Below are positions 1-18,321 of a DNA stretch of 64,000 nucleotides, piece by piece. Every line of letters begins with the position of its first letter. Positions within the stretch are counted from its first letter, which is position 1. Location: contig CBDFJF010000002.1 of the NCBI GenBank assembly GCA_965248265.1, positions 3,904,001 through 3,968,000 on the forward strand. The letters run 5' to 3'. Position numbers and translations under genes: made by a program. This stretch comes from Candidatus Latescibacterota bacterium (GTDB lineage Bacteria > Latescibacterota > UBA2968 > UBA8231). The notes under the pieces were generated by a model that did no database searches, had not been told where the DNA came from, and saw nothing but the letters and a program-made list of their open reading frames with translations.

Positions 1-2
1 TG

Positions 3-983: not shown

Positions 984-1499
984 ATGCCATCAACTGTGCC
1001 GCGCACACGAAAGCAACTTTTGGACGTTGTAGAAACCGGATACGCAGAATTGCAAGCCGAGCTTGCCAAGGGCGACCCGAGACTTGGGAATGTAGTTTGC
1101 GTCGACGACTGGACCGTTAAGGAATTGCTTGCGGTGCGTTGTTGGTGGAGCGAAGCCGTCGTGTCGTGGGTCCGCACTGCACGCGACGGAGGAGAGTTGG
1201 ATCTTCCAGCTCCAGGTTTCAAATGGAACGAAACGCCCAAACTGAACGCCAGCATCGCCCGTCGGTCCAAGCGAGAGACATATCTTGGCGTCAAAAGGCG
1301 CCTTGACAAAGCCTATCAAGATGTGCTGGTGTTAATCGGTGAGTTGTCGGACCGGGAGCTGTGCAAGCCAGGCGTCCTTGGCTGGACAGTAAAATGCGCG
1401 GCATGTCAGTTGATTGCTCTAAACACGGCGCGGCAATACTGTACAGCTCGGACCTTCATTCGACGCACTCTTAAATCCATGCAGGACGCCGTGCACTGA
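984..1499 (+). CDS. ClbS/DfsB (DUF1706/DinB-like) four-helix bundle protein, cassette gene
   Basis: MP..PRTRKQLL, WTVKELLA, LPAPGFKWNETPKLN motifs. Confidence 0.75.
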   Translation: MPSTVPRTRKQLLDVVETGYAELQAELAKGDPRLGNVVCVDDWTVKELLAVRCWWSEAVVSWVRTARDGGELDLPAPGFKWNETPKLNASIARRSKRETYLGVKRRLDKAYQDVLVLIGELSDRELCKPGVLGWTVKCAACQLIALNTARQYCTARTFIRRTLKSMQDAVH

Positions 1500-1754
1500 A
1501 GAGACGCTTGGATTCCGGATTTATTGACTCTTCATGGACTTGAGAGACAAGGACTGGTGTTGGGTGTCAGGGAACAATGTCCGACGTCATTTAAAAGCAG
1601 ATAACCGTCATGGCTATGAGATGCTGATCACATTGATCGAGATGAACTTATTGGGTGAAACCGGTCTCTGGGCACATGCCCTTCCCCTTTTCGCCGCCGA
1701 TGACAACAGGCAGTAAAAATCATTGAGCGGCCCTCCGCAGGCGCTCAAAAATGA

Positions 1755-2363
1755 ATGGAGAGCTTGATGGCAACTACTGAGACAGCGCTACTACTGCTTG
1801 ACCTCCAAAACGAGATTGTCGATCCGAAAGGGAAAGCAGGTGCAGAAGGCCTCGCTGGTCCGGTCGCCGAACGGAAAATTCTTGAACGGACAGCCGACTT
1901 GTTGAAGGCGGTTCGGACGAGAGGAATAGCGGTAATTCATGTGGTGGTCTGTTATCGTCCAGGCCACCCCGAGTTGCCACAGGCGGTGCCATTGGCCGAA
2001 TGGTTCAGAGAGGATGAATTATTGGTTGAAGGGAGTTGGGGAGCCCAGATACATCCCTTGGTCGCACCTTTCCCGAACGAAATTGTTGTAACCAAACGAG
2101 GGATCAGCGCCTTTGCCAGTTCAGACCTAGATGTCGTCCTCAGATCGTTGGGGATTTCGACAATAGTTCTGGCTGGAGTCGCAACGCGCTTTGTCGTTGA
2201 AGGGACGGCGCGAGATGCCTTTGAGAAGGGGTTTTCGTACATAGTGCTGGAAGACTGCTGTGCGAGCAGTAGTCCAGCGATGCATGAATCAGCGATTTCT
2301 TTCATGTCTAATTTTGGGGAGATCACTACCTCAAAGGAATGGTTACAAACCCTCGAGATATAG
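1755..2363 (+). CDS. Isochorismatase-family cysteine hydrolase, cassette gene
   Basis: LLLLDLQNE, VTKRGISAF, VLAGVAT, VLEDCCAS motifs. Confidence 0.9.
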   Translation: MESLMATTETALLLLDLQNEIVDPKGKAGAEGLAGPVAERKILERTADLLKAVRTRGIAVIHVVVCYRPGHPELPQAVPLAEWFREDELLVEGSWGAQIHPLVAPFPNEIVVTKRGISAFASSDLDVVLRSLGISTIVLAGVATRFVVEGTARDAFEKGFSYIVLEDCCASSSPAMHESAISFMSNFGEITTSKEWLQTLEI

Positions 2364-2376
2364 GAGATTGCCCGTC

Positions 2377-2481
2377 GTCTAACAGCACGGTGATGCGCTG
2401 CGCCGCATGCGCGGCTTGGCCTTCGGCAACCACTCTTCGCTATGCGCTCAGAGCGGTCCGCAAACCGGCAAGGCGTTACGC
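2377..2481 (+). other. attC site 2
   Basis: GTCTAAC...GTTACGC; shares TAACAGCAC, GCTTGGCCTTCGGCAAC and CGCAAACCGGCAA with attC 1. Confidence 0.85.
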
Positions 2482-2614
2482 GCAAGCTGAATCACCCGGG
2501 TTTCTCCGGATGCTCGATTGTGTGAGTCACGAAGTCAGCGAGTACTGCGTCCCTGGCAACTGCACTGCGTCTGCTTAGTCCGCAGGGCACTTTCTCTAAG
2601 ATCAAGAGGCAAGA

Positions 2615-3025
2615 GTGACTGAAGACCTCGATGTCCTACGTCAGATACTGCTCGAGTTCTGCGACGCGGAGCGGGTCGAGTTCGATGTCGCCTCGATTGA
2701 GGAATATCCCTCTGCTAGGCCGCCATTCAAGGCTCGCTGGAACGACGATGAAATCGTAGCGATCGAGATTGCCGAAGTCAGTCCCGGAGGCGGTCTTCCA
2801 CCGGTGTACTATGAATACATGGAACTCCCACGTTCGGAGGCGCCCGTGGATTTGCTCCTCCACTGTGAGAGCTGCCCACAGCCTGAGCCGGAACCAGGCG
2901 CAGCCGATAGCTTGAGGCAGTTGGAAGTCGATCTGCTCCTGCGTGGAGGAAGCCGACGGCAACCTTTCAGGAGACTGTGGCTCTACGAGCGGTCGACGAA
3001 GCAAGTATTGGGTTGTTATTACTGA
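2615..3025 (+). CDS. Hypothetical protein (cassette)
   Basis: 136-aa ORF with GTG start after an AG-rich RBS-like stretch, located between attC sites. Confidence 0.6.
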   Translation: MTEDLDVLRQILLEFCDAERVEFDVASIEEYPSARPPFKARWNDDEIVAIEIAEVSPGGGLPPVYYEYMELPRSEAPVDLLLHCESCPQPEPEPGAADSLRQLEVDLLLRGGSRRQPFRRLWLYERSTKQVLGCYY

Positions 3026-3039
3026 GGCGGTAAAACACC

Positions 3040-3615
3040 TTGTCCAATAGAGGTTTACTAAACCTTCCCGAGGAATTCGAGGACATTTTAACCGCGCAGG
3101 TCTTGCCCGGTCAGGGCAGGCCTATCGACTGGCCGCCACACCTAGCAAAGCATGAGTTCCTAGAGTTTTTGGTCCGACGCAATTATTGTCTGCACGGCTC
3201 TACCCACAAGAGCCTAACCATTCTGGAACCAAGGACGGCAAGTAGTCCGGTTGCAGGACAAGCAGAGACTGCTGTGTATGTCACTACGGATACACTCATG
3301 GCCCTATTTTTTGCAATCTTAGATAGATCAAAGATTTCATTCTTCGCTACCCGCTCTGATCCATCCTTTTTCTTTCTTTCTCCAGGGGCACTCCACCTGA
3401 AGCCGTGGACCGATGGCATGGTCTATATCTTCAAGCGGGACGATTTTGAATTTGCTGGCGGGCATCATGTGAGCTACCAACCCGTATCACCCGATGCGAA
3501 ATTGCAGTTGTCACCGTGCGACTTTCCTCTCTTCAATAGGATTTACGAGATTGAGAGTCTTGAGGAGACAGACGAGAAGTTCGAGAAGCTCAAAACCGAA
3601 TTCTACAGCCGATAA
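3040..3615 (+). CDS. Hypothetical protein, possible ADP-ribosyltransferase-like fold
   Basis: YCLHGST...LEPR...AVYVTTD...ALFFAI pattern; stop codon overlaps the attC 3 R'' box. Confidence 0.6.
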   Translation: MSNRGLLNLPEEFEDILTAQVLPGQGRPIDWPPHLAKHEFLEFLVRRNYCLHGSTHKSLTILEPRTASSPVAGQAETAVYVTTDTLMALFFAILDRSKISFFATRSDPSFFFLSPGALHLKPWTDGMVYIFKRDDFEFAGGHHVSYQPVSPDAKLQLSPCDFPLFNRIYEIESLEETDEKFEKLKTEFYSR

Positions 3616-3690
3616 CAGCGGGTTGATGCTGCGCGCCATACGGCGCTTGGCCCTCCGGGCAACCCCTTCGGGGGTTCATCAACCCAGCGG
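3610..3690 (+). other. attC site 3, truncated (no GTT R' box)
   Basis: CGATAACAGCGGGTTGATG...CATCAACCC stem with the shared GCTGCGCGCC..CGGCGCTTGGCC core; GTTRRRY is absent. Confidence 0.7.
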
Positions 3691-3694
3691 GGAA

Positions 3695-5017
3695 TCAGTC
3701 GGTCCCGCCGATGCAGTACAGGTGGGTCCCGGTGCGGATGAACAGCTGGTCTCCGGCCACCGCCATCGACGACAGGGTGAGGCTGCCGTCGAGTTCGTTG
3801 ACGTCCAGCTGCTGCAGCTTCGGTCCGGCGGCGAGGACCGTGGTGACGCCGTCCTCATTGGTGACGTACAGCTTGCCGTCCGCGAGCACGGGAGAGGCGC
3901 TGACTGAGCCTTCGGATGTGCGGTGAGGTCCCCACGTGAGGCGGCCAGTGGCGGCGTCAAGGCAGGTCACCTTCCCGCGGTCATCGACCATGTAGAAGTA
4001 ACCCTTGTCCGCGACCGGCGTAGGCACGTCAGGGGCGCCGGCGCCGGTCCAGCTCCAGGCCAAATCGTCGCTCGATACCGTCTCCGAGGCGCCGAGACGG
4101 AAGGCCTGCAACGGTTTCTCCACGGTCGGCACGAACAGCATGTCGCCGGCCACGACGGGCGAACCGACGATCCGGCAGGCGCCCCACTTCTCCGGATTGA
4201 GGCCACCGACGCGCCACACCTCCACACCGGTCGCCGGGTCGTGGGCGGTCACGTAATCGGCCCCGGACACCACGATCTCGCGCCGACCGTCACGCTCGAT
4301 GAGCACGGGCGTGGTGTAGGCGTCCGGCGACTCGGCGACCGCATCCGTATGACGCTCTCGACGCCACAGCACCTCCCCCGTGGCCGTGTCCAGGGCGATG
4401 ACGTAAGAAGGGTTGCCCGCCTGCTCCCCGTGGAGGACTGCGAGGATGAGCCTGCTTTCCGTGAGCAAGGGCGACGATGCATACCCGAACTGCATCCCGA
4501 ACCGGCCGTATTGCTCCTGCAAGTCCCGTCGCCAGACCACGTTTCCACCCATGTCCAGGGCGGTCACGAGTCCGGCGCCAGTGACCGTCCATACGTGCCT
4601 GCCATCGGTGACCGGAGACGGCGAGGTGTTGTCGTGCTTCCTGTGCATCTGGTTGCCGGTATCGAGTGATCGGCGCCAGAGCTCCGCGCCATCCGCTCTG
4701 GCGAGACACAAGAGCAACAGCGCATCCTCACCCGGGTCGTGTCCGGTCTCCGACGACTGAGTTCCCTCCACGGGCCTGCTCGCGGAGGTGACCAACACCC
4801 GATCTCCCCACACCACCGGCGAGCCGCCGCTCCACGACGGCAGCGGTGCCGACCAGGCGATGTTCTCGGCGGCGCTCCAGCTTGTGGGCAAGCCCGTCGA
4901 CGCACTGACGCCATTTCCGTGAGGGCCGCGCCACTGCGGCCAGTTCACATCGGCTTCGGTGTGCACGCTCCAGATCAGTGCGATAAGTACCGCAGCGCTT
5001 GTGCCACGCATAACCAT
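3695..5017 (-). CDS. Secreted PQQ-binding-like beta-propeller (BamB-like) protein
   Basis: Signal peptide, NWPQWRGP, repeated SPV..G..v.a.D..TG..W blades; start chosen at MVMRG. Confidence 0.9.
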   Translation of the reverse strand: MVMRGTSAAVLIALIWSVHTEADVNWPQWRGPHGNGVSASTGLPTSWSAAENIAWSAPLPSWSGGSPVVWGDRVLVTSASRPVEGTQSSETGHDPGEDALLLLCLARADGAELWRRSLDTGNQMHRKHDNTSPSPVTDGRHVWTVTGAGLVTALDMGGNVVWRRDLQEQYGRFGMQFGYASSPLLTESRLILAVLHGEQAGNPSYVIALDTATGEVLWRRERHTDAVAESPDAYTTPVLIERDGRREIVVSGADYVTAHDPATGVEVWRVGGLNPEKWGACRIVGSPVVAGDMLFVPTVEKPLQAFRLGASETVSSDDLAWSWTGAGAPDVPTPVADKGYFYMVDDRGKVTCLDAATGRLTWGPHRTSEGSVSASPVLADGKLYVTNEDGVTTVLAAGPKLQQLDVNELDGSLTLSSMAVAGDQLFIRTGTHLYCIGGTD

Positions 5018-5177
5018 GGACTCCCGTGTTTTCTGGCGAATTCGGTTGACGACCACTCAGTGTCGCCCGGGTTGCCATGGGGTCGGGCGCCCGTTCCCGG
5101 ACCGTGAGTATGGCAGCCAGTCATGAATATCTCGCAAGGACGCCCATCAGTCTATCAGGACGATGCCCGCACGGCAT

Positions 5178-5357
5178 TTACGGAACCAACAACAGCTTGC
5201 TGGTATGCGCCGTCCGATTGCTGCTTCGTAGCCGCGACAGATATATGCCAGTGCCCAACATGCGGCCCCGGCTGTCTCGCCCGTTCCAGAAGACGTTGTA
5301 CGTTCCGGCGAGGCGGGGTCCGGACACCAGCGTCGTGACCTTCTGCCCCGCCAAGTC
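5178..5357 (-). pseudogene. Orphan FlgD-Ig/T9SS-CTD-like C-terminal domain remnant
   Basis: Own translation: DLAGQKVTTLVSGPRLAGTYNVFWNGRDSRGRMLGTGIYLSRL...KLLLVP*; out of frame with the upstream gene and has no start codon. Confidence 0.8.
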
Positions 5358-7102
5358 TACTGCCCCATCGGCGTGAGCCGCTCTACGAGCTGCGCCTCTG
5401 CTGGCACATCGAAGGCGAACAATCCTTTCGGCAGTTCTCCATCGATTTCGATGGCTACGTGCTTTTCCAACCGTCTCTTGACGATTTCCTCGCGCTGCCC
5501 AGCCGGGCTCTCAGTGAGTCCCGCGGCTGCGTCCACCCTTTGCTCGAACTCTACCTGACGGATCAGGTGATCATCCTGGCCCACCCACACTCGCATCGTG
5601 ATCGGATCATTTTCGGCGCCTGCGATTCTCGACATGTGCAGGGCCCTGGGGAAACGGTCTACCTCGAGCACGGTGGTCTGCGTCCCGTCCAGCTCGTCTG
5701 AGCCCACCATGCGCATGGCCGTCGTTCCGGTCATGAGCTCAGACAGCGGATCCTCGCTCAAGAGCAGTCGCAGCACGAGCCCGTCCAGAGGCATGCCCAT
5801 GGGTACCACGGCGTGCACGTCCGACCGCGAGAGTGTACCAGGCGCCTTCCGTTGCACATACTGCTTCCGGTCGAAAATCATACCCCGATCCAGGCCTGCG
5901 AAGAGCGTCTTGCCGTCGCTCACCACGACCAAGTCTCCACCTCGGGCTTCGTGATCCGTGACTCGGATTCGGTTCGGGCGTTCGAAGGCCAGCGTCGTGG
6001 GTCGGGCGCCATGCTGCTTCGCCATGCCATACCACACCGTTCTGATGTGAAGCGTCGTATCACGGTAGCTCCGCAGGCCGGCATACCGCGTCGCCACCTC
6101 GCGAAGCTCGTCCGGGATCGACAGCGGTGTCGCCACCAGCTCGACCTGCGCGTCACCAGACAAGGTGACATTGAGCGTCTCGCCCTCCCTGGCCCCGAAC
6201 CCCGGCAGTACCCCGATCGCATACCTGCCAGGCAGAAGATCCACGTGGAAGGCGCCATTTGCGTCCGTTCGAGCAGAGGCAGTGAGACGCCCTTCACGCA
6301 TGATACCGAGGACGAGCGCGTGGAAAGCCTCGCCCTCCAGTGTGCGCACCGTCCCCGTCAACGCTGCGGCTCGGCCCCGGGGAAGCGGCGCCACCGGCAC
6401 CAGCTCTCCGGTCGGGAACTGGCCTCCAGTCTGGACGGCCACTTTCGCCAACTCACCGGCTCTCCAGGAGATCCAGCTGCTCCGCGCCCCGCCATCTGCA
6501 TCAGCCACTGCGATGGCGAGTCCGACTGTGTCACCCGGGGTCGCCTCGAGCGGGATGGACCACTCGTAGACCGTCGTCGTCCCGAGCCGAACGACGGCGC
6601 CTTTGACATCGTAGCTCCCCGTACCGGGTGGAAATGACTGCGGTCCAGGATTCCGTTCGTGGCTGTCCCGACTCGGACCGACCCCCATGAAATAACGCTG
6701 CGCATCACCCGAGGTGCTGTGTTCGTCCACCCCGAGCACACAGCCGTCTTGGTCCTGGAACGGCAGGCCGAGTTCATCGTCCTCGACTACGACGGCCACG
6801 TACAGGTCGCCCGTGGCTTCGTCGTATCCCGTGTGAAAGCGCCCGGTGAAGTCCGCAGGACCATTGGGCGGTTCCCCTTGCAGGTGCGGAGAGGCCTCCC
6901 CGACTTCGGCGATAGGATGGGACACCATCCGCTCGGGCCAGTCTTCGAGCCTGCCATCGATGACGATGCCCCTCAGTGGGACTGCGTCTGCAAGGTACGG
7001 CTCATCACCTGCCGCCGACCAGGGCCGTCCTGCAACCGGGCAGAGGATCAGGAGCATCGTCCATCGAACTGTGCAAAGCGTCAGTGATCTGATATGGCTC
7101 AT
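5357..7102 (-). CDS. Secreted multidomain protein: CBM9/DOMON-like + carboxypeptidase-regulatory-like + LolA/DUF2092-like
   Basis: IDGRLEDW...LYVAVVVEDD; GTVRT..G...TDANGAF..LLPGRY; AFERPNRIRV...WVGQDDHLIRQ...FAFDVPAEA. Confidence 0.75.
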   Translation of the reverse strand: MSHIRSLTLCTVRWTMLLILCPVAGRPWSAAGDEPYLADAVPLRGIVIDGRLEDWPERMVSHPIAEVGEASPHLQGEPPNGPADFTGRFHTGYDEATGDLYVAVVVEDDELGLPFQDQDGCVLGVDEHSTSGDAQRYFMGVGPSRDSHERNPGPQSFPPGTGSYDVKGAVVRLGTTTVYEWSIPLEATPGDTVGLAIAVADADGGARSSWISWRAGELAKVAVQTGGQFPTGELVPVAPLPRGRAAALTGTVRTLEGEAFHALVLGIMREGRLTASARTDANGAFHVDLLPGRYAIGVLPGFGAREGETLNVTLSGDAQVELVATPLSIPDELREVATRYAGLRSYRDTTLHIRTVWYGMAKQHGARPTTLAFERPNRIRVTDHEARGGDLVVVSDGKTLFAGLDRGMIFDRKQYVQRKAPGTLSRSDVHAVVPMGMPLDGLVLRLLLSEDPLSELMTGTTAMRMVGSDELDGTQTTVLEVDRFPRALHMSRIAGAENDPITMRVWVGQDDHLIRQVEFEQRVDAAAGLTESPAGQREEIVKRRLEKHVAIEIDGELPKGLFAFDVPAEAQLVERLTPMGQ

Positions 7103-7178
7103 TGCTGTGGCTCCTGTCGAGTATGCCAACCGGACCCATACAGTTGTCCAACTGTTTGCACGATGCAAGCCGCCGACG

Positions 7179-7207
7179 TGACCTGCAGATAATGAGTCCG
7201 ATGGTCA
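7179..7207. repeat. 29-bp 11-7-11 palindromic site, copy 1
   Basis: TGACCTGCAGA-TAATGAG-TCCGATGGTCA; intergenic, just past the stop of 7224-7895. Confidence 0.65.
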
Positions 7208-7223
7208 ATACTAGCACTGCAGG

Positions 7224-7895
7224 TCAATACGCAGCTTTCACTTGCCCCCAACTCCGCGCTGCCACCACAGTGACCGGGTTCAACCGACGATACACCGTCT
7301 CGAAGCCATCCTCGTCCATGAGGACGAGCGTGTCGCCGTCAAGGCTGAACTCGGTACCTTCTATGAAATTGAGGGTGGTCTCAAAGAACTCCTCCAGGTT
7401 GATCCGCACGTTGACATGGGGTCCCTGGCCTAGGCCAGGCAGTTCGACCACTTCCCGTTCCAGAGCCGCCCAGAAGTTCTCTTCGTTGAGCCCGCTGTAG
7501 CTTACACTGAAATCTGTTGCAGAGAGGCTGAATTGTGTGCCCGTGACCTCCCAGCGGCCAGTCATGACGAATCTCACACGGAACCCCTCTGTGAAGAAGG
7601 GCGTATCCGGCAGTTCGGCCAACTCCCCGTTCGCAAGAGACACAGAGACAAAATCCGGCCCAAAGTGTGCCTCGATCGTCAGCTCCGCTGTGCCATCCTC
7701 TTTGACGGCGAGCCGATTGGACCCGTCCCCTTCCGCTATCAGGTGTACCCACGTGCTAACCAGCCCATCTTGGGCATGCACAGCGGAGGAGGCAATGCAG
7801 ATCGCGGCGAAAAGCGCACCAAATGATGTCACGAGTGCAGCCCCAAACCCTCTACGATTGCATGATGTATCCCGTTTCACCGTAGCAGCGAGCAT
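7224..7895 (-). CDS. Secreted protein with Tat-like signal and C-terminal SWGQVKA tail
   Basis: NRRGFG followed by a hydrophobic stretch and VHA; ends VTVVAARSWGQVKAAY. Confidence 0.75.
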   Translation of the reverse strand: MLAATVKRDTSCNRRGFGAALVTSFGALFAAICIASSAVHAQDGLVSTWVHLIAEGDGSNRLAVKEDGTAELTIEAHFGPDFVSVSLANGELAELPDTPFFTEGFRVRFVMTGRWEVTGTQFSLSATDFSVSYSGLNEENFWAALEREVVELPGLGQGPHVNVRINLEEFFETTLNFIEGTEFSLDGDTLVLMDEDGFETVYRRLNPVTVVAARSWGQVKAAY

Positions 7896-7899
7896 TTGA

Positions 7900-9168
7900 T
7901 CACCGACTGAACGAGGCTTTGATTCGGCCCCAGGTTTCACTTTCCGCCGCGGGTTCCAGTCTCTTACCCGCACAATCGCCTGACAACGGTTCGTCGATCC
8001 AGCGCGTGAGTCGCCACAGGCCGTCATCGCCCTGGCGCAGCTTGAAGTTCATGTTCTGGTCGACGCGGACGCCTTCGTCCGGGGCGGACAGCAGCAGTAT
8101 CTGCACGCGGCCGCGAAAGACCTCCCAGTCCTCGTCTGTATGGCCGTCGGGGTCCCCCTCGAAGGCGATGGGAAAATCCCGTCCCAGCTCGGTCCAGCGC
8201 TCGATCAGAACGAACTCGTACTCAATCGTTCTGAAAAAGTCGAAGAGGCCCTGGCGCGAGCCATCGCGCGGACTCATGATCTCGAGCTCCTCTTCCTTCC
8301 CGTTCGCGAACACGAGGTCGCCCAGGCAATCGCCCTCGGTGAACCAGAAGTCGTTATCGAGCAGGGTCTCGTAGAGCTCCTTGTCACGCTCGTTGAAGGC
8401 GCGCTCGAGATTGTCCATGGCAGTCTCTGAGGTGCTGGCTGGGCTCGGCTGAGACGCCACAACAAAATCCATTGTCGTGTCTTCTGTAATAAGAACGCCT
8501 GTTTGCTCGAACGGCTCGATGGATGGTCCGGTGATCGTAACCCGAAACCTGTGTGACTGGTCTTGCATTAATTTGGCGGCTATTCCAACAACGGTGGGAA
8601 GCCCAGGTTTGGGTGAGAGACCGACAGCCCCGTCAGTCAGGCTCATCTTGCGCGTGTCAACGAAGTGGCCTGAGATAAGCCTGTAGAAATACACCCCAGC
8701 AGCAACTCCACGTGCTGACTCATCGCGGGCGTCCCACTGTATTGAATGGTGGCCTGCATCCTGCCAATTATCAAGCAATGTGATCACACGATGTCCGAGA
8801 ATGTTGTAGATCTCTATTGTGGTATGACCGGCTGTTGCCAGACTGTAGGAGATAATCGTTGAGGGATTGAACGGGTTGGGATAGTTCTGGTTTAGGTTGG
8901 ACGAGGCTGGGGTCGGTTTGCTCTCGCTCTGTACGGCGGTGGCGATTCGTAGGTCAATCCGGTAGTGACCTTGTTCGTCAGTGACATCACTGAATCGCTC
9001 GTTTGGGCTGGCTTCATTTATGAAAGTTACTTCGACGCCTGTAACGTCCGAGCCGTCAGCACGGCTCACAGTGCCGGACACCTCCAAGCTCCACGAAGGT
9101 CCGCTCAGAAACAGGATGGCAAACAGACCGGTGAGAAGTCTCGCGCAAGCATTTTTTCGATGTCGCAT
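7900..9168 (-). CDS. Secreted protein: carboxypeptidase-regulatory-like + internal FlgD-Ig + NTF2-like, with TWGRIKA tail
   Basis: Signal peptide; NQNYPNPFNPST...WDARDESARGVAAGVYFYRL; ends ETWGRIKASFSR. Confidence 0.8.
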   Translation of the reverse strand: MRHRKNACARLLTGLFAILFLSGPSWSLEVSGTVSRADGSDVTGVEVTFINEASPNERFSDVTDEQGHYRIDLRIATAVQSESKPTPASSNLNQNYPNPFNPSTIISYSLATAGHTTIEIYNILGHRVITLLDNWQDAGHHSIQWDARDESARGVAAGVYFYRLISGHFVDTRKMSLTDGAVGLSPKPGLPTVVGIAAKLMQDQSHRFRVTITGPSIEPFEQTGVLITEDTTMDFVVASQPSPASTSETAMDNLERAFNERDKELYETLLDNDFWFTEGDCLGDLVFANGKEEELEIMSPRDGSRQGLFDFFRTIEYEFVLIERWTELGRDFPIAFEGDPDGHTDEDWEVFRGRVQILLLSAPDEGVRVDQNMNFKLRQGDDGLWRLTRWIDEPLSGDCAGKRLEPAAESETWGRIKASFSR

Positions 9169-9232
9169 TTGTCAGGCTATTACCTCCCTCGTGGTATGTC
9201 CGTCGTTGTCTCAATCCGAGGCGCGTGATTCG

Positions 9233-9706
9233 CTAACCGTATTGCTGTCGCAGAACCCCCGCCCACACAAGGTGGACCATCGACAGCGCCAGGGCTGCAG
9301 TACCAAGAGCGGTGGGTTTTTGCGTCAGGATTCTGATCGCTGAGACGTACCGGCCATCCGTGTCGATGCCAGCTTGCGCGGCCAGACGAACAACATCTCC
9401 CAACACGAGTAAAATGAGCAATCCGGAAACTGCGGCCGATGTCGCCATTTGCAGGTACATGTAAAGTTGCTGCACCTCACCGAGAGTCAACCCCCACAAC
9501 AATGGCGGAACGGCTATGGCAGCCATCGTGCCGTTGTTTATCCAGCCTGCGACCAGATTCGTGGCCGTGCTCAAACCCACGCCGATACAGACCCAAATAA
9601 TGCTCGTCCATTGCAGGTGGCGTTTTGTCCAGACAGCCGCTCCGATGAGCAGGACGCCAATCGCGAGCCAGATCGCCAGATTTACGGAACCCAGAGCTAT
9701 GATCAC
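9233..9706 (-). CDS. Hypothetical integral membrane protein
   Basis: 157 aa with 4-5 hydrophobic segments; GGGGGTGG RBS-like sequence upstream. Confidence 0.7.
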   Translation of the reverse strand: MIIALGSVNLAIWLAIGVLLIGAAVWTKRHLQWTSIIWVCIGVGLSTATNLVAGWINNGTMAAIAVPPLLWGLTLGEVQQLYMYLQMATSAAVSGLLILLVLGDVVRLAAQAGIDTDGRYVSAIRILTQKPTALGTAALALSMVHLVWAGVLRQQYG

Positions 9707-9735
9707 GTTCCACCCCCTGTTACTTTGAAGCCTGA

Positions 9736-9764
9736 CGACCCGCGGAGTCCTGATCCGATGGTCA
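9736..9764. repeat. 29-bp 11-7-11 palindromic site, copy 2
   Basis: CGACCCGCGGA-GTCCTGA-TCCGATGGTCA; 26/29 identical to copy 3. Confidence 0.85.
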
Positions 9765-9773
9765 CTCGGCTCA

Positions 9774-12700
9774 CTATCTCAACACGACCATCTTCTGAGA
9801 GACAGCCGCCCTGCCAGCGACGAGCACTCCCACGTAGACGCCCGAAGCCACCGACTGGCCGTCCGCGTTCCTGCCGTCCCAGATAGCGGCTTGCAGGGGT
9901 GCCGCGTAAAGGCCGGGCTCGCGGTCGCCGACATCGAGCTCCCTGACCAGCTGACCGAGGGTATCGTAGATCTTAATTTTAACCGAACTCTGTCTGAACA
10001 CGCGGAACGGCAGGTGCGTTCCCTGGTTGAACGGATTGGGGTAAATCGGCAGCAGCACGGCGTCCTTCGGTGTCACCGTCGTCAGTCCATCAGCGGAGCT
10101 CTCGTCCCATACTTGCCAGAATTGCAGCGTGCCGTTCCACGTTCCCGTCGTGAGTTGAGTTCCGTCCGGACTGAATGCGATCGCTCGTATGCCGCCGGCA
10201 TTCGTCAGTTTGACCACTGAGCTGAGGGAGGTATCGATCCTGCGCAGATAGATCGTCCCGTCAAGGCTCGCGGTTGCCAGGCCTAGTCCATCGGGAGTGA
10301 ACGCCGCTGCCTCGATCCAGTCGTCGTGTTCGCTGAGGACCTGACGAAGCGCTAAATAGATTCCTCCTCCAGTGCGAAGTCGCGCCGTCCTGTCGCGGCC
10401 CGCCGAAACGAATCTCGACCCGTCCGCATTGAAGGCGACGGACGCCACCTCGCCGCGGTGACTCTTCAGCACGGCGAGCAACGTGTGATCCGTCGTCTCC
10501 CACATCGCAACTGAGCCGTCACTGCTGCCGGCAGCCAGAACATTGCCGCCGACCGGGTCCATGGCCAGCGACATGACCGGCTGAGGTTCATCTCGCCTCA
10601 GTGTCGCCAGCTTCTGTCGCTCGTTCACATCCCACAGATCCAGACTACCGTCGAGACCTGCGGAGACGAGCGTCGGCCGCACAGAGCTGAAGACGAGGCC
10701 AGATATCCCCTCGCTTTCGTGCCCCTGAAACTCAGCAATCTGTTCGCGCGACCTCGCGTCCCACAGGCGAACCGTTCCGGCCGCATCCCCCGAAGCGAGG
10801 AACGGATCATTCGGGCTGAACGCCACCGCTGTCACCTCGTCCTCATGGCCGTTCAACACAGCCGTTCTCCGCAGTGAGACCGGATCGTACAGCTCGATGC
10901 TTGTGCCAGTAGCCACTGCCAGCTGGGCTCCCTTCGGGGAATACGCCAGATCGGCGACCGGCGCGGAGACAATGAGCTCAACGACCCCGCCGGGCAACGG
11001 TCCGGCTTGTCCACCTCCCATGTTCACGAGGTGCAGTGGCGTCTCGGTCACGTTCCCCGCCCCATCTGTCGCAATACCTTTGAGGAGATAGGTTTCCTCG
11101 GTGGCGTCTCGCCAGATCGCCTCGTACCGACCGGCCTTTTTCGCCAGAGCTATAGTCGCAATCTGAGTCGTGTCCCCGACGCTGTAGATTACACCCGTCG
11201 CCTCGAGCGGTCCCGCGTTCGTAACCCGACTCTCGGGCAGTACGATCGACAGCCCATCTGGCACACTCTGGGTCAGGAATGGCAGTACGCGCGGCGGCGT
11301 GCGGTCGCCACCTGCGGCCACCTCCAACTGCAGGGTATCGATGGATGTTTCATACCCGCTGTCGAAGTCGATCTCGAACTCCAGGACGGTGCCGGGGATC
11401 AAGTCGGATGCCAGCAGAAATTCCGGTGAACGAATCGCCCCGGCCCCGAGTGCATCGTCCTCGTCGAAACCGGAAAACGGGAACGGCACCGGCATCGCCT
11501 CCTCCTGCAGACTTCGAATCCTCACGGATGTGGCGTCCACCATCTCCGCTCGTCCTTCCACCTCCACGGCCAACCTGATGAACTCGCCGGCTTGCACCAA
11601 TCCGTCGCCGTTCCCGGCACTGTCCACGACGGCAATACGGGTGATTCGCGGGGGCTCCGAGGAGACCACTTCGAGGGGGAACTGCTCCATCCACAGCAGC
11701 TCTCGGCTTTTATCCCGGGGGTACACCGACAAATTCACCCGAAACGCGTGGATACCTACGAATCCTGGCTTCACCTCGAGTATGGGTATGCCGTTCGTCG
11801 ACTTCGATTCCGCGGCGTCATAGAACCGCATGCCGGCTTGGAGCTCGCCCTCAAAATCGTTCCAGCTGTTCGGAATTCGCTGCTCTGGTGTCCCCGCGTG
11901 AAAATCCACCACCGGATCTGTGATGGTGATCAGCGTGTCCTCACTTGTCACTTCCATTTGGAGCCACGGTGTAAGATTCGGCCAGGACGCGAGTCTGAAT
12001 TCGATCTGGGCGGTTTCTCCCACCACCAGAACACCGTCGCCGTTTTCGTCCCGGATCCGCACATCCATCTTCACGAGCGGCTCGATCTCGACCTGTGCCG
12101 TGGCGACACCACCCGCTTCGAACGCAATATCCTCGATGCGAACTCTCCACCAGCCGTCATTGCTGGCGGAGCTTGGATTGCTTTCGGGGGTGAAGGAGCG
12201 AAACCGATCGCCGTCGAACGGGTCCGTGTCGTCTCCGAGATTGCCGGCGTGATCTCGGGTGTACCTTTCGTCATGGGCCCAGAAGTCGAGGTTGTCCTTC
12301 CCAGTTTCGGGATTGGCCTCCGTTCCCTTCGGAAACCCGGACGAGCGCCACTTGCCGTCGGCGCATTCCAGATCAACCCGCTGCGCTCCGCGCCTCCTCG
12401 GATCGAAGTGCCAGATCAGCAGGCCCTCGGCAGGCATGTTGCGGTCGTAGTGCGCGCTGGACCGCTGGCGATTCGAGATGAGAAATCGCTCGTTATTCGG
12501 AAGCAGGATCTCGTAGATCTCACCACTCTCTTCCACCGGCGGCAGTCGCATGCTGCTGAGCCGCTGGGTTGGCCGCCGCCGCTCCAGCCATCCGAGTTGA
12601 CTTCGACTCCAGGCGCTGAACGGGTTTGGACCGTCTGCGCCACTCCAGCCAAGGGCGCCCCACCCCATCAGACCCCAGGCGCCGATGCCGGCAGAATCCT

Positions 12701-13520
12701 CAGCGGGTTCCAGGGGGACCTCACTGCGTAGGTACCCGACGTTGCGCAGGTCCGGCAACCCCAGGATGTGACCGTATTCATGGCTGATCGTTGCGGCGAG
12801 CACAGCATAGGATCGGCCGGCCTGAATCGTACCGTGTAGCACCTCGATCGGCTCACCCGATGCCCTTCGATCGGCCGTGACGAACGTCGGCTCGAGCCCG
12901 AGACTAGCCACTCCGGTGGCCGGTCCGAACAGGAAGTTCCGCGGCGCAGAACGCACAGCTATGAACACGACATCGACGAAGCCGTCGTCGTCGCCGGAGT
13001 CCGGCAAGCCGTCGGGACCATCGTTGTCGAATCGCGAGAAATCGACGTCCCGATCCGCCTTGCGAAGGATCTCCGACGCGAACACTCCGAAGTGGCCGCG
13101 CTCCGACGATGAATCGGAAAGGTATGCTGAGACTTCACTGTCGGATTCGTACCAGGTTGGTACCACCTCGCCGCGCAATGTGTGCACTCCAAACGACATC
13201 GTGTCGTAGAAGTGACTGACGCTGCCAGGTCGATCGGGATCGAAGAGGTCATCCGCCCAGTCGGGGATTGCCGTATCGGCAGGCAGTTCGTCCTTGAAAT
13301 GAGCGAAAAGAACAATCCCCGTACGAGTGGTAGCGACCTGAGCTTGAGTGGGCTTCGCTGGCCCATGGAGCTTCAGTGTAGCTGCATCCGTGGCCACATG
13401 GCCAACGCACACAAACTCATCGCCAGCCCAGACGTTCGTCGTGAGCACGGTACATAGCGGGATCAAGGCCTTGAGTGTAGCAGTTTTAGGCGATGGCAGC
13501 ACTCTGATTTCCTTCACCAA
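9774..13520 (-). CDS. M6 (immune inhibitor A-like) metalloprotease + WD40 repeats + C-terminal FlgD-Ig domain
   Basis: ISHEYGHILGLPDL zinc motif, GIGAWGLMGWG Met-turn; GHEDEVTAVAFSP...LWD repeats; IYPNPFN...WDGRNADGQSVASGVY. Confidence 0.9.
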   Translation of the reverse strand: MVKEIRVLPSPKTATLKALIPLCTVLTTNVWAGDEFVCVGHVATDAATLKLHGPAKPTQAQVATTRTGIVLFAHFKDELPADTAIPDWADDLFDPDRPGSVSHFYDTMSFGVHTLRGEVVPTWYESDSEVSAYLSDSSSERGHFGVFASEILRKADRDVDFSRFDNDGPDGLPDSGDDDGFVDVVFIAVRSAPRNFLFGPATGVASLGLEPTFVTADRRASGEPIEVLHGTIQAGRSYAVLAATISHEYGHILGLPDLRNVGYLRSEVPLEPAEDSAGIGAWGLMGWGALGWSGADGPNPFSAWSRSQLGWLERRRPTQRLSSMRLPPVEESGEIYEILLPNNERFLISNRQRSSAHYDRNMPAEGLLIWHFDPRRRGAQRVDLECADGKWRSSGFPKGTEANPETGKDNLDFWAHDERYTRDHAGNLGDDTDPFDGDRFRSFTPESNPSSASNDGWWRVRIEDIAFEAGGVATAQVEIEPLVKMDVRIRDENGDGVLVVGETAQIEFRLASWPNLTPWLQMEVTSEDTLITITDPVVDFHAGTPEQRIPNSWNDFEGELQAGMRFYDAAESKSTNGIPILEVKPGFVGIHAFRVNLSVYPRDKSRELLWMEQFPLEVVSSEPPRITRIAVVDSAGNGDGLVQAGEFIRLAVEVEGRAEMVDATSVRIRSLQEEAMPVPFPFSGFDEDDALGAGAIRSPEFLLASDLIPGTVLEFEIDFDSGYETSIDTLQLEVAAGGDRTPPRVLPFLTQSVPDGLSIVLPESRVTNAGPLEATGVIYSVGDTTQIATIALAKKAGRYEAIWRDATEETYLLKGIATDGAGNVTETPLHLVNMGGGQAGPLPGGVVELIVSAPVADLAYSPKGAQLAVATGTSIELYDPVSLRRTAVLNGHEDEVTAVAFSPNDPFLASGDAAGTVRLWDARSREQIAEFQGHESEGISGLVFSSVRPTLVSAGLDGSLDLWDVNERQKLATLRRDEPQPVMSLAMDPVGGNVLAAGSSDGSVAMWETTDHTLLAVLKSHRGEVASVAFNADGSRFVSAGRDRTARLRTGGGIYLALRQVLSEHDDWIEAAAFTPDGLGLATASLDGTIYLRRIDTSLSSVVKLTNAGGIRAIAFSPDGTQLTTGTWNGTLQFWQVWDESSADGLTTVTPKDAVLLPIYPNPFNQGTHLPFRVFRQSSVKIKIYDTLGQLVRELDVGDREPGLYAAPLQAAIWDGRNADGQSVASGVYVGVLVAGRAAVSQKMVVLR

Positions 13521-13551
13521 TGTTTCATTGCAAATGCATGCCTTCGTCCAA

Positions 13552-13580
13552 TGACCCTCGCAGTCCTGATCCGATGGTCA
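13552..13580. repeat. 29-bp 11-7-11 palindromic site, copy 3
   Basis: TGACCCTCGCA-GTCCTGA-TCCGATGGTCA; its last 3 bp are the original TGA stop of the phosphotransferase gene. Confidence 0.85.
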
Positions 13581-13642
13581 CCTGTTTCGTCGAGCTCGCT
13601 CAAGGTAGTATTTGAATCGCCCCGGGTTTTTCGGAGACTCGG

Positions 13643-14874
<1,232 letters not shown>

Positions 14875-14887
14875 GACTCCAATCCTC

Positions 14888-15856
14888 TCAAGAAATGGAG
14901 CCTCCGGCAACCCCGGGGCGATTCAATTCGTACTTCGCCTGCGTACTCTGGCTCCATTCACGAGTCACGACAGACAGGCGACGTCGGCTTTCCTGCTTTC
15001 CCTCAAGGACCTCCGCTATTCGCACCAGCCAACCCGCGATAGAAATAGACAAACAAGCGCGTATGCGATTCTCGACATCAGGGATATCAGTAACACTCGC
15101 GTAGCTCGATATGACCCACTCCCAGCGTGACTCCGATACATCCATGTAGGTAGCGTGTGTCATCATCTCGGCGATATCGAAGGCAGGATCGCCCCAACCG
15201 CTGTATTCCCAGTCTACTGACCTGATTGACCCATCGTGCCGGATGAAGTTACGTACGTTGTGATCAGCGCGGCAGAGGCCGGCGGGCACACGAGGACATC
15301 CGCCAAAGTTCAGTTCGGCAAGATTCCCAGTGACGTCAAGAACAGGCGTCGGTAGCCGCTTCTCCTGAGCAATTGCGTGTAATCTGCTCGCCTCTCGTGC
15401 GTATTCCTCTGCACCATTCGCATTGTTGTAGCACCCAAGAAGATCGACCGTGGCATGGCGGAGCGCATGGACTGTAGCCAGATACTCAAGCAGATCGGAC
15501 CATTCCTGGTCCTCGCGGGGTGCCGTCTGGATCATGTCGCCGGGCAGCCAAGTCTGGACGACTACCGGTTGCGGGTAGCTGTCCGTGTCCAACAGAATAG
15601 GCTCCGGTGCCAATGCACCACCTGCCTCTTTCAAGGCACAGAGGGCCCCATATTCACGGTTAGCGCGGTCTCGCTCATCACGAATCGTGAACTTGATGGC
15701 GAAATCACCGGAATCGCCACATGCCCTGAATAGCAGATTGTTTGCCCCGCCCGTAACCTGCCCTATATGCCAACCGTGCCAGATCTCTTCGGGACGATCA
15801 CTACCCGCGAGGTAGTCCAACAAGGCTCGAAGCTGTTGTTCGTACACTGCGCTCAT
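14888..15856 (-). CDS. Aminoglycoside/choline phosphotransferase-like kinase; the last ~9 codons are displaced by the IS3
   Basis: [31 protein letters not shown]; removing the IS restores ...KYEYYLERARRNR* ending at 13578. Confidence 0.8.
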
Positions 15857-16010
15857 CCTCAGCTGCCGTCGGTTGGAGTTGCTCTGCCAGGCTACTCTCT
15901 GACATTACTTTACGCAATTGGCCACAGCCAGCACTCCGTATTTCCACGAATATTCTTGTTATCCAGAACACAGTATATTGGTGGCTTGACCGTCTCAACG
16001 AGTGGTTTGC

Positions 16011-16187
16011 ATGCAGAAAATCAACCGTGAACACATCGAGAGAGCCGCCAGGCTCTATAATTCGAACAAGGAAGCTAGCGATGCTCTCGGGATCCACGTG
16101 AGTTCATTTGGGCGGGCCTGCCGGAACTACGGCATAGAAACGCCTGCTGCGAAGAAGCTCAGACAGAGAAGCCGGGCGTCGTTGTAG
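16011..16187 (+). CDS. Small Fis-like HTH protein
   Basis: IERAARLYNSNKEASDALGIHVSSFGRACRNYGI. Confidence 0.65.
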   Translation: MQKINREHIERAARLYNSNKEASDALGIHVSSFGRACRNYGIETPAAKKLRQRSRASL

Positions 16188-16423
16188 CAGTCTGCAGGTC
16201 AAGGGGATTTGCTCCCAATCCCCACAATCGAGGGGCGTTTTTTAGAGCCAGGGGTCGGCTCAGATTATCGGCGAAAACTCACAGCGTTTGCCGGACAGGA
16301 GAAACGAGCTAAAAGCTCGCAGAACAGTCGTGAAAGCCGCCAGGGGCCATGCCTGTCTGGGTGCGTCAAACGTCGGCTCCTCTTGAGCCGGGCACGCCGA
16401 TTCCCAGCAAGATCTTTTCGAGT

Positions 16424-16570
16424 TCAGCGAGGGATCGTATTTTCGTAGTCCGACACGATTCCCGAGTCGTTCGCTTTGCCGTCACGATTGAGCCACACCG
16501 AGGTCGCACCGACTCCGTTTGCACCAGCCACGTCGGTATGCAATGAGTCACCCACTCCGTGCACACAATT
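16424..16570 (-). pseudogene. HAD-family hydrolase C-terminal remnant
   Basis: VGDSLHTDVAGANGVGATSVWLNR (HAD motif IV) with no N-terminal part; ends approximate. Confidence 0.7.
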
Positions 16571-16795
16571 GTGTATTCTCTGGACCAATAACGTGATGCA
16601 GATTCGGGGCACGAATCAGCACTGTAGTGCGGCCGAGACCAGTGCTGTAATACAGATTCAGGTACGGAATCCGCACGATAGGCAAACTTTACGCCTGAGG
16701 CGTCACAGCCCTTCCGCCGCCACCGACGACGCGCCTCGAGGTGCAAATGACAGCGCGATCCAAGGCCACACCATGACCCAAATCGGGTGATCAGG

Positions 16796-17821
16796 ATGGA
16801 TGTCAGAGACGGCTTCATCGAGACCATCGGCAATACCCCGCTCATCAGACTTCGTCGGGTCTCGGAGCAGTCCGGCTGCGACATTCTGGCCAAGGCCGAG
16901 TCCCTCAATCCCGGCGGGTCGGTCAAGGATCGTGCTGCCTGGGCGATCGTCAAGGATGCCGAGACCAAGGGCCAGCTTCGCCCCGGAGGCATGATCGTCG
17001 AGGGCACGGCGGGCAACACAGGCATTGGCTTGGCGCTGGTAGCCCGCGCCCGCGGTTATCGCGTCACCATCGTGATTCCCGAGACCCAGTCGGCGGAAAA
17101 AAAAGACATGCTTCGGCTGTGCGGCGCCGATGTTCGCGAGGTTCCCGAAGCGCCCTACAGAAGTCCGGAGAACTACGTACACTTCTCTCGCCGGCTGGCA
17201 GACGAGTTGGCGAAGAGCGAGCCGAACGGTGCGCTGTGGGCCAATCAGTTCGACAACACCGCAAACCGGCAGGGGCACTTCGAAACCACCGGACAGGAGA
17301 TCTGGCGACAGACAGATGGCAAGGTGGACGGTTTCATCTGTGCAGTCGGCAGCGGAGGTACCCTGGGCGGGGTGTCCCTGGCGCTGAAGGAACACAACAG
17401 GAACATTTCAATCGGCCTGGCAGACCCGATGGGGGCCGCGTTGTACAGCTACTATTCGAAGGGCGATCTCAAGTCCGAAGGCGACTCGATCAGCGAAGGC
17501 ATCGGCCAGGGCCGGGTCACGGCCAACCTCGAGGACGTCGTGATCGACCGACCCTACCAGATCAGCGATGCGGAGGCGCTTCCCCAGGTCTTCGACTTGC
17601 TGGAACACGAGGGGTTCTGCGTTGGCCTGTCGAGCGGCATCAACGTTGCCGGCGCGCTCAGACTGGCAAAGGACCTCGGCCCCGGAAAGGTGATCGTAAC
17701 CGTGCTCTGCGACTCCGGCACTCGTTATCAGAGCACACTCTTCAACCCGGCGTTTTTACGCGAAGCAGGATTGCCGCATCCGCCTTGGCTGGAGAGATCC
17801 TCCCCCCTTGGGCTGATCTAG
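16796..17821 (+). CDS. cysK: Cysteine synthase (O-acetylserine sulfhydrylase)
   Basis: IGNTPLIRL, KAESLNPGGSVKDR (PLP lysine), EGTAGNTG, GSGGT. Confidence 0.92.
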   Translation: MDVRDGFIETIGNTPLIRLRRVSEQSGCDILAKAESLNPGGSVKDRAAWAIVKDAETKGQLRPGGMIVEGTAGNTGIGLALVARARGYRVTIVIPETQSAEKKDMLRLCGADVREVPEAPYRSPENYVHFSRRLADELAKSEPNGALWANQFDNTANRQGHFETTGQEIWRQTDGKVDGFICAVGSGGTLGGVSLALKEHNRNISIGLADPMGAALYSYYSKGDLKSEGDSISEGIGQGRVTANLEDVVIDRPYQISDAEALPQVFDLLEHEGFCVGLSSGINVAGALRLAKDLGPGKVIVTVLCDSGTRYQSTLFNPAFLREAGLPHPPWLERSSPLGLI

Positions 17822-18321
17822 CATGCGAGATGCTCAGGGCGCCGTTGCGACTAACTCAGTGTCATGGGTCGTTCCTACGCCGCCATTCTCTACCCTTACA
17901 GTTGGCGCGAGTCAGGATTCATTTTCATTTAGAGCCGGAAAGGATTCGAGGCACACCGGGAATCAGATTGGAAGTCCGATGCTCGGAGGGTCAGTCTTGC
18001 CATAGAGGCCACGACCACATGACGCGGACGAACGACACAATCTAACCCCAGCCGCTACTCTACTGCACCGGCTTGGCGCCTTTTCGCCAACGGATTGGGG
18101 GTCCGTTGTCCTCTCAAATTTGCCAATCTGTCCAGGAAACAGACGAACAGCCTCCATCTGTCCTGAAAGCTGGACTCAGGCCAATTTGAGCCGCTTCTCA
18201 GGTGATCCTCTCTGCCTCAATCCCCACAGCTACAATGAGTTAGCGCCGCCTGACGCCCGTGAGAGCGTTCTTGGCACATCCCTTGCAATGGTGTATGGTA
18301 GTGACCTCGGACAACTATGCC

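Follow-up and report, generated by a model that had tools for sequence, protein, structure and literature searches.

A clustered, one-directional family of 29-bp 11-7-11 sites in a Candidatus Latescibacterota genome: a probable module-exchange system distinct from integrons

To our knowledge, integrons and the dif modules of Acinetobacter (pdif) are the two known ways in which accessory genes are filed behind short recombination sites. Here, a family of 29-bp sites, each with two inverted 11-bp arms around a 7-bp spacer (11-7-11 sites), is described from the genome of a marine Candidatus Latescibacterota bacterium (G000; 7.32 Mb in two contigs, C1 and C2). The sites were recognized in a stretch of 64,000 nt, C2:3904001-3968000, which is referred to as the window. 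Comparisons of their sequences indicate that they probably serve a non-integron module-exchange system with heterospecific spacers, run by dedicated XerA-like tyrosine recombinases.

The pdif sites are 11-6-11, with distinct XerC and XerD arms; they alternate in orientation along the plasmid and are recombined by the host dimer-resolution enzymes. The attC sites of integrons are 57-141 nt long, carry RYYYAAC/GTTRRRY cores and are recombined as folded single strands. Among the single-Xer systems, difSL adjoins xerS. Heterospecific lox and FRT sites (13-8-13) are an engineered use of Cre and Flp, in which they serve recombinase-mediated cassette exchange. In the R64 shufflon (Rci, sfx), one spacer is shared by inverted sites and segments are inverted inside one gene. 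For Cre, Flp, lambda Int and Xer, it is established that strands are exchanged via a Holliday junction only when the spacers are identical.

Three of the sites, at 7179, 9736 and 13552 of the window, had been described in the initial annotation of this DNA and were found with exactly the coordinates, arms and spacers given there. Searched with TGACCATCGGA-N7-TCCGATGGTCA at up to three mismatches, the window contains these three matches only, and 100 dinucleotide shuffles contain none. All three have the same right arm; of the 11 positions of its reverse complement, the left arms share 8, 8 and 9, respectively. A half-site profile, built iteratively and applied to both arms, adds sites of lower score to the window, and three further family sites lie just upstream of it.

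5141-5169 (+), 11-7-11 site with spacer CTATCAG, score 19.5; left breakpoint of a replaced module
7179-7207 (+), 11-7-11 site TGACCTGCAGA-TAATGAG-TCCGATGGTCA, profile score 25.4; within the window's version of the replaced module
9197-9225 (+), 11-7-11 site with spacer GTCTCAA, score 17.4; right breakpoint of the replaced module
9736-9764 (+), 11-7-11 site CGACCCGCGGA-GTCCTGA-TCCGATGGTCA, profile score 26.2
9774-13520 (-), sole gene between the GTCCTGA sites 9736 and 13552, with an N-terminal Peptidase_M6 domain and C-terminal WD40 repeats
13552-13580 (+), 11-7-11 site TGACCCTCGCA-GTCCTGA-TCCGATGGTCA, score 27.8; direct repeat of site 9736 at a spacing of 3816 bp
16173-16201 (+), weak 11-7-11 site with spacer GTAGCAG, score 15.0
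17957-17985 (+), 11-7-11 site with spacer TTGGAAG, score 18.3; the spacer recurs at C1:844325 and C1:878169

Measured on mechanically called open reading frames (ORFs), site 7179 is 16 nt beyond the stop at 7224 and 10 nt ahead of the start at 7168, site 9736 is 9 nt beyond the stop of ORF 9774-13520(-) and 29 nt ahead of the start of 9233-9706(-), and site 13552 is 31 nt ahead of the TTG start at 13520. The claim that the GTCCTGA pair brackets one M6 protease gene as a 3816-bp unit was confirmed (Peptidase_M6 domain, 25.6 bits; cut-off 22). A third GTCCTGA site, C1:789820, was considered as an empty-site allele and rejected, as it shares no flank with the pair in the window. The TAATGAG spacer of site 7179 recurs, with the same facing, at C1:175241, 786739 and 870086, and the left flanks of site 16173 (window 16011-16190) and of the GTAGCAG site C1:680380 are homologous.

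Across the 7.3-Mb genome, 63 spacer-7 sites score at least 18, as against 4 in the control, the reversed, non-complemented sequence. Each of the other spacer lengths from 2 to 12 gives at most 10 sites at this score; spacer 6 gives 10, the best of which adjoin recombinase genes. The sites are strongly clustered, with 57 of the 63 within C1:640-1030 kb or C2:3.88-3.935 Mb, which make up 5.8 % of the genome, and the density is 134 per Mb in the array regions (425 kb) compared with 0.9 per Mb elsewhere. A genome scan for further copies had been proposed in the initial annotation, and these are many. Of the 57 clustered sites, 50 are intergenic, although the array regions are 76 % coding.

Both arms follow the consensus T-S-Y-G-A-T-G-G-T-C-R, and none of the 57 clustered sites departs from it at G4, G7 or C10 in either arm. 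Conservation is higher in the right arm, where 49 of the 57 sites have T at position 6, than in the left arm, where 26 have it; this asymmetry is alike across spacer classes. Sites with just 6-7 of 11 complementary positions are common; arm complementarity is 7.26/11 within the same site and 7.05/11 between different sites, and 739 of 10000 permutations reach the within-site value. The absence of compensatory pairing between the arms favours protein half-sites over hairpins such as REP, attC or RNA structures. With inverted arms of ~11 bp and a fixed 7-bp spacer, the 29-bp elements have the general core-site architecture of tyrosine recombinases.

The 57 clustered spacers comprise 26 different sequences, 14 of which occur 2-8 times, among them GACAGAA (eight times), TCCTATG (five) and TCCTATA (four). 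Pairs of clustered sites with identical spacers are all in direct orientation (67 direct, 0 inverted), also when one mismatch is allowed (114 and 0). The arms of sites in the same spacer class are barely more alike (7.3 and 8.4/11) than those of different classes (6.75 and 7.8/11), and the flanks of same-spacer sites are mostly unrelated; thus the spacer is kept constant while arms and surroundings change. There is a weak asymmetric spacer consensus, in which A is never at position 1, A is at position 6 in 42 of 57 sites and a purine is at position 7 in 51 of 57. The spacer pair TGCCCAC...CAGGTAA is found twice, around unrelated inserts of ~0.9 kb. In six of the eight GACAGAA sites (C1:715056, 777401, 800859, 848626 and 889662; C2:3894166), the right arm is followed on its right, after 5-25 nt, by a CTTGTGAYTGTTC-like motif.

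The clearest of the homology breakpoints belong to a replacement: sites 5141 and 9197 flank a stretch that has been replaced relative to a copy of its surroundings in C1.

3684-5178 (-), module with a PQQ_2/BamB-like gene (3695-5056), duplicated in C1
5179-9194 (-), replaced interior, from site 5141 to site 9197, with genes 5357-7168 and 7900-9168, both minus

The left part, window 3684-5178, is 98.4 % identical to C1:762434-763929, and on the right, window 9195-9556 is 98.3 % identical to C1:767386-767747. Between them, the window interior (4016 bp) has no similarity to the C1 interior (763930-767385, 3456 bp) by blastn, tblastx or blastp. The former encodes a DUF2092/CBM9/CarboxypepD_reg protein (5357-7168) and one with CarboxypepD_reg and a Por_Secre_tail-like domain (7900-9168), the latter a Peptidase_S15/PepX_C protein and a DUF4185-like protein. 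At the left breakpoint, identity covers the left arm and the CTATCAG spacer of site 5141 plus 4 nt, then ends; at the right breakpoint, it restarts 5 nt ahead of the GTCTCAA spacer of site 9197. This is the footprint that would be expected if a segment reading 'right arm ... left arm' had been exchanged by crossovers in two different spacers. Each copy of the duplicated BamB-like module opens with a degenerate sequence resembling a site, GGGGAATCAGT-CGGTCCC-GCCGATGCAGT (window 3688-3716), which in the window comes directly after an attC-like repeat.

A second, independent junction is found between genera. The genome G026 belongs to another genus, and its core DNA is ~65-75 % identical to that of G000. 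It carries the site TGACCATCACC-GACAGAA-TCCGATGGGCG, and from the GACAGAA spacer rightwards it is ~97 % identical to G000 from C1:711715 onward, for ~1.8 kb; to the left of the spacer, neither arms nor flanks agree. Older junctions show the same pattern: in the pairs 651961/705180, 680380/876902, 177643/C2:1145240, 715056/848626 and 700336/C2:3044283, homology is present on one side only, over 60-387 bp, and stops at the site edge. Recombinant junctions appear to change partner at the spacer. In a comparison of the G026 locus C10:1888957-1908956 (L122) with G000, several segments are 98-99.6 % identical, one of them, matching C2:1878445-1886042, being 7.6 kb long; recent horizontal exchange between the two lineages is suggested by this. 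Many of these segments belong to a multi-copy family of 2-2.6 kb.

A candidate enzyme is encoded in the window, with composite sites beyond the 3′ end of its gene.

26247-27098 (-), XerA-like tyrosine recombinase of 283 aa, one of four paralogs; Pfam Phage_integrase, 96 bits
26138-26195 (+), composite site: 11-6-11 with spacer CGAACA (score 27.0), 1 nt, then 11-7-11 with spacer GTCTTGC; 52-109 nt 3′ of the recombinase stop
23116-23173 (+), composite site: 11-6-11 with spacer CAAACC, 1 nt, then 11-7-11 with spacer GTGATAT

The genome has 18 Phage_integrase matches. The four paralogs, C1:685700-686638(-), C1:703263-704105(-), C2:3033502-3034371(+) and window 26247-27098(-), form a group of 80-83 % identity, the window copy being 80-82 % identical to the other three. 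Three paralogs, together with a recombinase fragment (C1:731073-731336), lie inside the two arrays. The best NCBIfam match of the window protein is XerA/integron-integrase, under the cut-off; on the integron-integrase models it reaches 74.3 bits for TIGR02249 (cut-off 265) and 31.9 bits for NF011946 (cut-off 435). Its closest solved structure is the Pyrococcus XerA-like protein 4a8e (E 3e-17). In an alignment of 23 members, R137, H218, R221, H244 and Y253 do not vary, and K162 hardly does. The family is rare, with 96 proteins at E <= 1e-20 among 5.8 billion, and the closest assemblies encode proteins (P0002 and P0006-P0008) that are 86-91 % identical.

Each of the four paralogs has a composite site that begins ~50-450 nt 3′ of the stop codon. 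The layout is an 11-6-11 site (spacer CRAAYR), 1 base, and an 11-7-11 site (spacer GTCTTGC or GTGATAT). Composites homologous to 26138-26195 come after the three other paralogs, and the composite at 23116 recurs at C1:685264, C1:177613 and C2:1145210 and, inverted, at C2:3040653. The fourth paralog, at C2:3.03 Mb, is on the opposite strand and the opposite replichore, and the sites on its 3′ side (C2:3040653 and 3061199) have the reverse-complement spacers ATATCAC and CTCTGTG; the relative orientation of gene and site is therefore kept. Of 17 metagenome loci scanned that encode relatives of the recombinase, four show an 11-7-11 match beyond the gene, at a distance of 20 or 46 nt; they form two contig pairs, whose recombinases are 45 % and 53 % identical. 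By their position, the four paralogs are apparently candidates for the enzymes of the 29-bp sites. Just upstream of the copy at C1:703263-704105 (copy B), and facing the same way, is a gene for a small ParB-HTH protein (C1:704087-704518(-)), which may be an accessory DNA-binding factor; homologous stretches precede copy A and the fragment (C1:688332-688888, 731489-771), and none precedes the window copy. In the window, a serine resolvase/invertase (27252-27839(-)) lies directly upstream of the tyrosine recombinase and is not conserved beside the other three paralogs. With a terminase small subunit encoded a little farther along, at 29272-29883(-), this part of the window has the look of the border of a mobile region, prophage-like or of another kind.

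The genes between the sites point in all directions: around the 57 clustered sites, flanking gene orientations are ++ for 15, +- for 15, -+ for 14 and -- for 13. Median distances are 226 nt from site to gene start and 114 nt from site to stop, so that the sites are somewhat closer to stops, and the median spacing of sites is 4.3 kb, which gives a typical module of ~4 kb. A reading of the sites as promoters or operators was rejected, as their polarity is independent of the strand of the flanking genes and their distances to starts are not fixed. The initial annotation had named a lack of further copies, freely varying spacers and a fixed distance to promoters as outcomes that would speak against movable modules, and none of these was seen. 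Its proposal that the cargo consists of secreted-protein genes was too narrow: the 81 genes scanned that flank C1 sites are very mixed, with 85 Pfam families, none in more than four genes. PurH-like and UppS-like genes of the arrays are second copies, with a better-scoring copy of each elsewhere in the genome, and FliG_C has 12 matches in the genome. The housekeeping-looking genes of the arrays are extra, accessory copies.

On cumulative GC skew, the origin is at ~C1:3.0 Mb and the terminus, taken as the skew maximum, at ~C2:3.5 Mb. Both arrays are on one replichore, ~0.4 Mb and 1.3-1.65 Mb away from this terminus, and only a single spacer-7 site with a score of 15 or more (15.0) is found within 100 kb of it. 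The GC skew of C1:0.5-1.1 Mb is near zero, as expected of a patchwork region, whereas that of the rest of the replichore is clearly negative. Judged from their sequence, two accessory regions, of ~360 kb in C1 and ~41 kb at the window, apparently consist of modules that can be exchanged, each with one gene or several. The skew of C1:300-500 kb has the opposite sign, and an inversion is suggested there.

Two other kinds of mobile system are found among the 11-7-11 sites. The initial annotation had reported a neighbouring attC array, and this is real, with attC-like repeats at three positions in the window and just upstream of it (found by fuzzy motif search and repeat-family listing).

886-956, 2395-2478 and 3626-3684 (region 886-3684, +), attC-like repeats of a cassette array without integrase, continuing upstream to C2:3899229
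C1:725092-727145, 695942-697995, 647276-649331 and 655008-657063, group II intron copies in C1
C2:3891539-3893597 and 783713-785763, group II intron copies in C2

Further attC-like repeats are at C2:3899229-3902124 and at C1:779803, 781891 and 783348; the repeats, of ~110 nt, make up cassette arrays without integrase that are embedded in the 11-7-11 arrays. An integron-integrase-like gene, C1:1754213-1755118 (239.6 bits on TIGR02249; cut-off 265), is followed by attC cassettes (C1:1754213-1758900). One attC cassette is duplicated at 99.7 % identity between C1:1.754 Mb and the C1 array, where its attC ends 2 nt from site C1:781953. The duplication that contains it (C1:779833-781951 and C1:1755317-1756120) was considered as a site-bounded module and rejected, being an integron cassette bounded by attC cores. 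A true integron system coexists in this genome, with sites different from the 29-bp family.

The second is a 2.04-kb repeat of the arrays, a group II intron (RVT_1 reverse transcriptase; Rfam RF02005 and RF00029, D1-D4 and domain V/VI) with six full copies in two subfamilies. The copy at C2:3891539-3893597 is ~10.4-12.5 kb upstream of the window. Five of the six, all of them on the minus strand, interrupt 11-7-11 sites of three spacer classes at one and the same position, TCCG^ATGG, which is 4 nt from the spacer; the remaining copy is in a half-site-like sequence. Group IIC-attC introns are described (PMC3001079) as inserting into integron attC sites, and by analogy with these the intron can be regarded as a site-specific parasite of the 11-7-11 sites.

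The proposed mechanism is conservative site-specific recombination. Two recombinase monomers would bind the inverted 11-bp arms, cut at either edge of the asymmetric 7-bp spacer and exchange strands there, via a Holliday junction. Only sites with the same spacer would synapse productively, which would make the ~25 spacer classes mutually exclusive addresses. Between two direct sites of the same class, the DNA would be excised as a circle with one site, which may re-enter at any site of its class, and a double crossover could exchange a segment between two different classes in a single step. Binding and cutting of the sites by these recombinases, the rule of matching spacers and the circular intermediates are what the sequences lead us to infer. 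The claim in the initial annotation that modules bounded by tyrosine-recombinase-type sites can move, that spacer identity matters and that the system is distinct from integrons and pdif is supported by the clustering, the polarity, the paralogs and the breakpoints. A fuller account would be a natural, genome-scale form of cassette exchange, in which ~25 incompatible 7-bp addresses on lox/dif-like arms are read by a dedicated multi-copy XerA-like recombinase and modules are stored, excised, re-inserted and swapped. This would be a duplex counterpart of the integron, interleaved with an integron, exchanging between genera and carrying its own group II intron parasite; we hold the chances of this whole account to be about even.

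Compared with the described systems, the likeness to pdif lies in the inverted 11-bp arms, the short spacer and the many copies that bound modules of one to few genes in varied contexts. Unlike pdif, the sites described here have a 7-bp spacer, ~25 classes and one facing, form chromosomal arrays of up to 360 kb and have a four-copy recombinase beside them; neither the 28-bp length with 6-bp centre nor the alternating orientation that define dif modules is found in the 29-bp sites. A mobile element is aimed at the sites in both, the group II intron here and, according to PMC10132070, the IS1202 family at pdif sites. As in integrons, a tyrosine recombinase gene is at the edge of a one-directional site array between promoter-poor accessory genes, some arrays have no recombinase near them and group II introns home into the sites. 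Unlike attC, the sites are of 29 bp with the conserved TSYGATGGTCR and have neither RYYYAAC cores nor arm covariation, and the recombinase is far under the IntI cut-off. Heterospecific lox and FRT sites likewise have palindromic arms and an asymmetric spacer that decides pairing, and the swap between incompatible sites is the pattern seen at 5141/9197; those are laboratory constructs, whereas this would be a natural genome-scale set of ~25 spacer codes, of which the literature searched contains no description. Single-Xer systems (XerA/dif, XerS/difSL and XerH/difH) share the XerA-type relative and an 11-6-11 site beside the recombinase gene. They differ in having one terminus site per replicon for dimer resolution, where there are ~70 sites off the terminus here, mostly with 7-bp spacers; at least 63 are found in place of the one terminal site of dif. 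The R64 shufflon has a 7-bp spacer and one well and one poorly conserved arm, but here the orientation is direct, there are ~25 spacers and whole genes lie between intergenic sites. REP hairpins, with their IS200/IS605-like RAYT genes, for which no search was made here, are spread genome-wide, unlike the 57 of 63 sites in 5.8 % of the genome described here, which also show no arm covariation. The system would function like dif modules and integrons while lacking what defines either, as seen in one genome and at one cross-genus junction. A full-text literature search, in which titles and the beginnings of abstracts were available, returned no description of it.

The site family, its clustering and polarity, its position by recombinase genes and the breakpoints at spacers were found directly, and can be set against three other explanations. 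One is that the sites are recombined by another enzyme, for example the product of C1:1754213-1755118 or the Xer-like protein C2:769733-770650, and that the four paralogs are cargo. There is no shortage of candidates among 18 Phage_integrase matches, and the C1:1754213 protein reaches 239.6 bits on the integron-integrase model (cut-off 265); attC arrays are interleaved with the sites, and the attC of one cassette ends 2 nt from one of them; Acinetobacter dif modules are reported to rely on host XerC/D. This explanation is nevertheless unlikely: all four paralogs have a composite site with the arm motif by their own stop, as have two metagenome lineages, the opposite-strand paralog has sites of opposite polarity, the 29-bp sites have no attC features, and a single spacer-7 site scoring at least 15 is within 100 kb of the terminus, where a host dif would be expected.

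Binding without strand exchange, by a dimeric regulator or a nucleoid or partition-type protein, would also fit inverted 11-bp half-sites without covariation, with the module boundaries merely coinciding with intergenic operators, and the ParB-HTH protein upstream of copy B, in a stretch kept upstream of copy A and the fragment, could be such a protein. It would leave unexplained the ~25 asymmetric one-way spacer classes (67 and 0), the polarity independent of genes, the breakpoints at spacers in recent duplications and across genera, and the crowding of nearly all sites (57 of 63) into 5.8 % of the genome, beside recombinase genes; we consider it quite improbable. Even less is to be said for single-stranded hairpins, either REP-like with RAYT or attC-like, or for sites conserved merely as homing sites of the group II intron, and the likelihood of either is very small. 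The sites are imperfect intergenic palindromes, and the intron inserts into them as IIC-attC introns do, but the arms show no compensatory pairing and are often complementary at 6-7 of 11 positions; as to homing, there are six full introns for ~70 sites, and a target lying 4 nt into one arm leaves the spacer classes unaccounted for.

Several points weigh against module exchange by dedicated recombinases. The link between recombinase and sites is positional only, and 13 of the 17 metagenome loci have no site 3′ of the gene. Left arms are frequently weak, with scores down to 3.5, and the interior-facing arms are degenerate in the C1 copy of the replaced module. Of the low-copy duplications listed for the arrays (71 rows), only eight have an end no more than 60 nt from a site, and the integron cassette is among these eight; the case is made by a few sharp junctions and not by a general rule. 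Direct repeats of the same class persist tens of kb apart, for example eight GACAGAA sites over 178 kb in the C1 array. Efficient excision should delete the DNA between such repeats, and activity must therefore be rare or controlled. Gene positions outside the window come from a crude ORF/GC3 caller. Recombination itself is deduced from sequence, and no excision product was seen. Finally, no comparable array was found in 75 other genomes of the family, which have 0-6 pattern matches each, compared with 48 here.

The relatives compared were from other genera of the family, order and phylum, with none of the same genus among them. No match to the recombinase at E <= 1e-75 was found in 167 other genomes of the phylum, and at E <= 1e-70 only G012 matches, at 45 % identity, among 76 genomes of the order; a scan of genome contigs gave distant relatives only. 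Ten loci around isolated pattern matches in relatives have single sites only, five relatives show no synteny with window 1-20000, and tblastn of the recombinase against a plasmid collection gave no match. In 80 metagenome loci, on short contigs, no site arrays were seen. Sequencing runs were examined as Logan contigs, four from one sample containing the window and two from marine metagenomes with small shares. Neither the circle nor the empty-site form of the 3816-bp unit that had been predicted was found: no 9736-13552 joint is listed for runs X1, X2, X3 and X5 over window 1-20000, in contigs that cannot show rare variants and are thus uninformative on excision. One contig each in X3 and X5 spans 9527-13602. 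The X5 contigs break at 5133-5162, on site 5141, and the X3 contigs do not, a weak hint to which no weight is given. A marine-metagenome contig of X2 joins relatives of two window genes (6151 to 8864) via a 34-nt site-like insert; likeness is low and it was set aside.

If the sites are indeed used for module exchange, modular gene storage by site-specific recombination would have arisen more than once, in a form that has not been sought, and a 360-kb patchwork region with almost no skew would be explained. A search rule for other genomes would be recombinase paralogs followed by a composite site, and genome engineering might gain from the system a ready set of natural sites with heterospecific spacers, together with a compact recombinase. 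The intron on these sites echoes the cases of introns at attC and insertion sequences at pdif, and suggests that multi-copy recombination sites may be a general safe harbour for selfish elements.

An IS3-type element also lies close to one of the sites in the window.

13612-14925 (-), IS3-type element 32 nt to the right of site 13552, with an rve/HTH_21 transposase at 13643-14557

At least 10 further copies in the genome match this element at 100 % identity, and a diverged IS3 copy (89 %) is found between two attC sites at C1:780014-781325.

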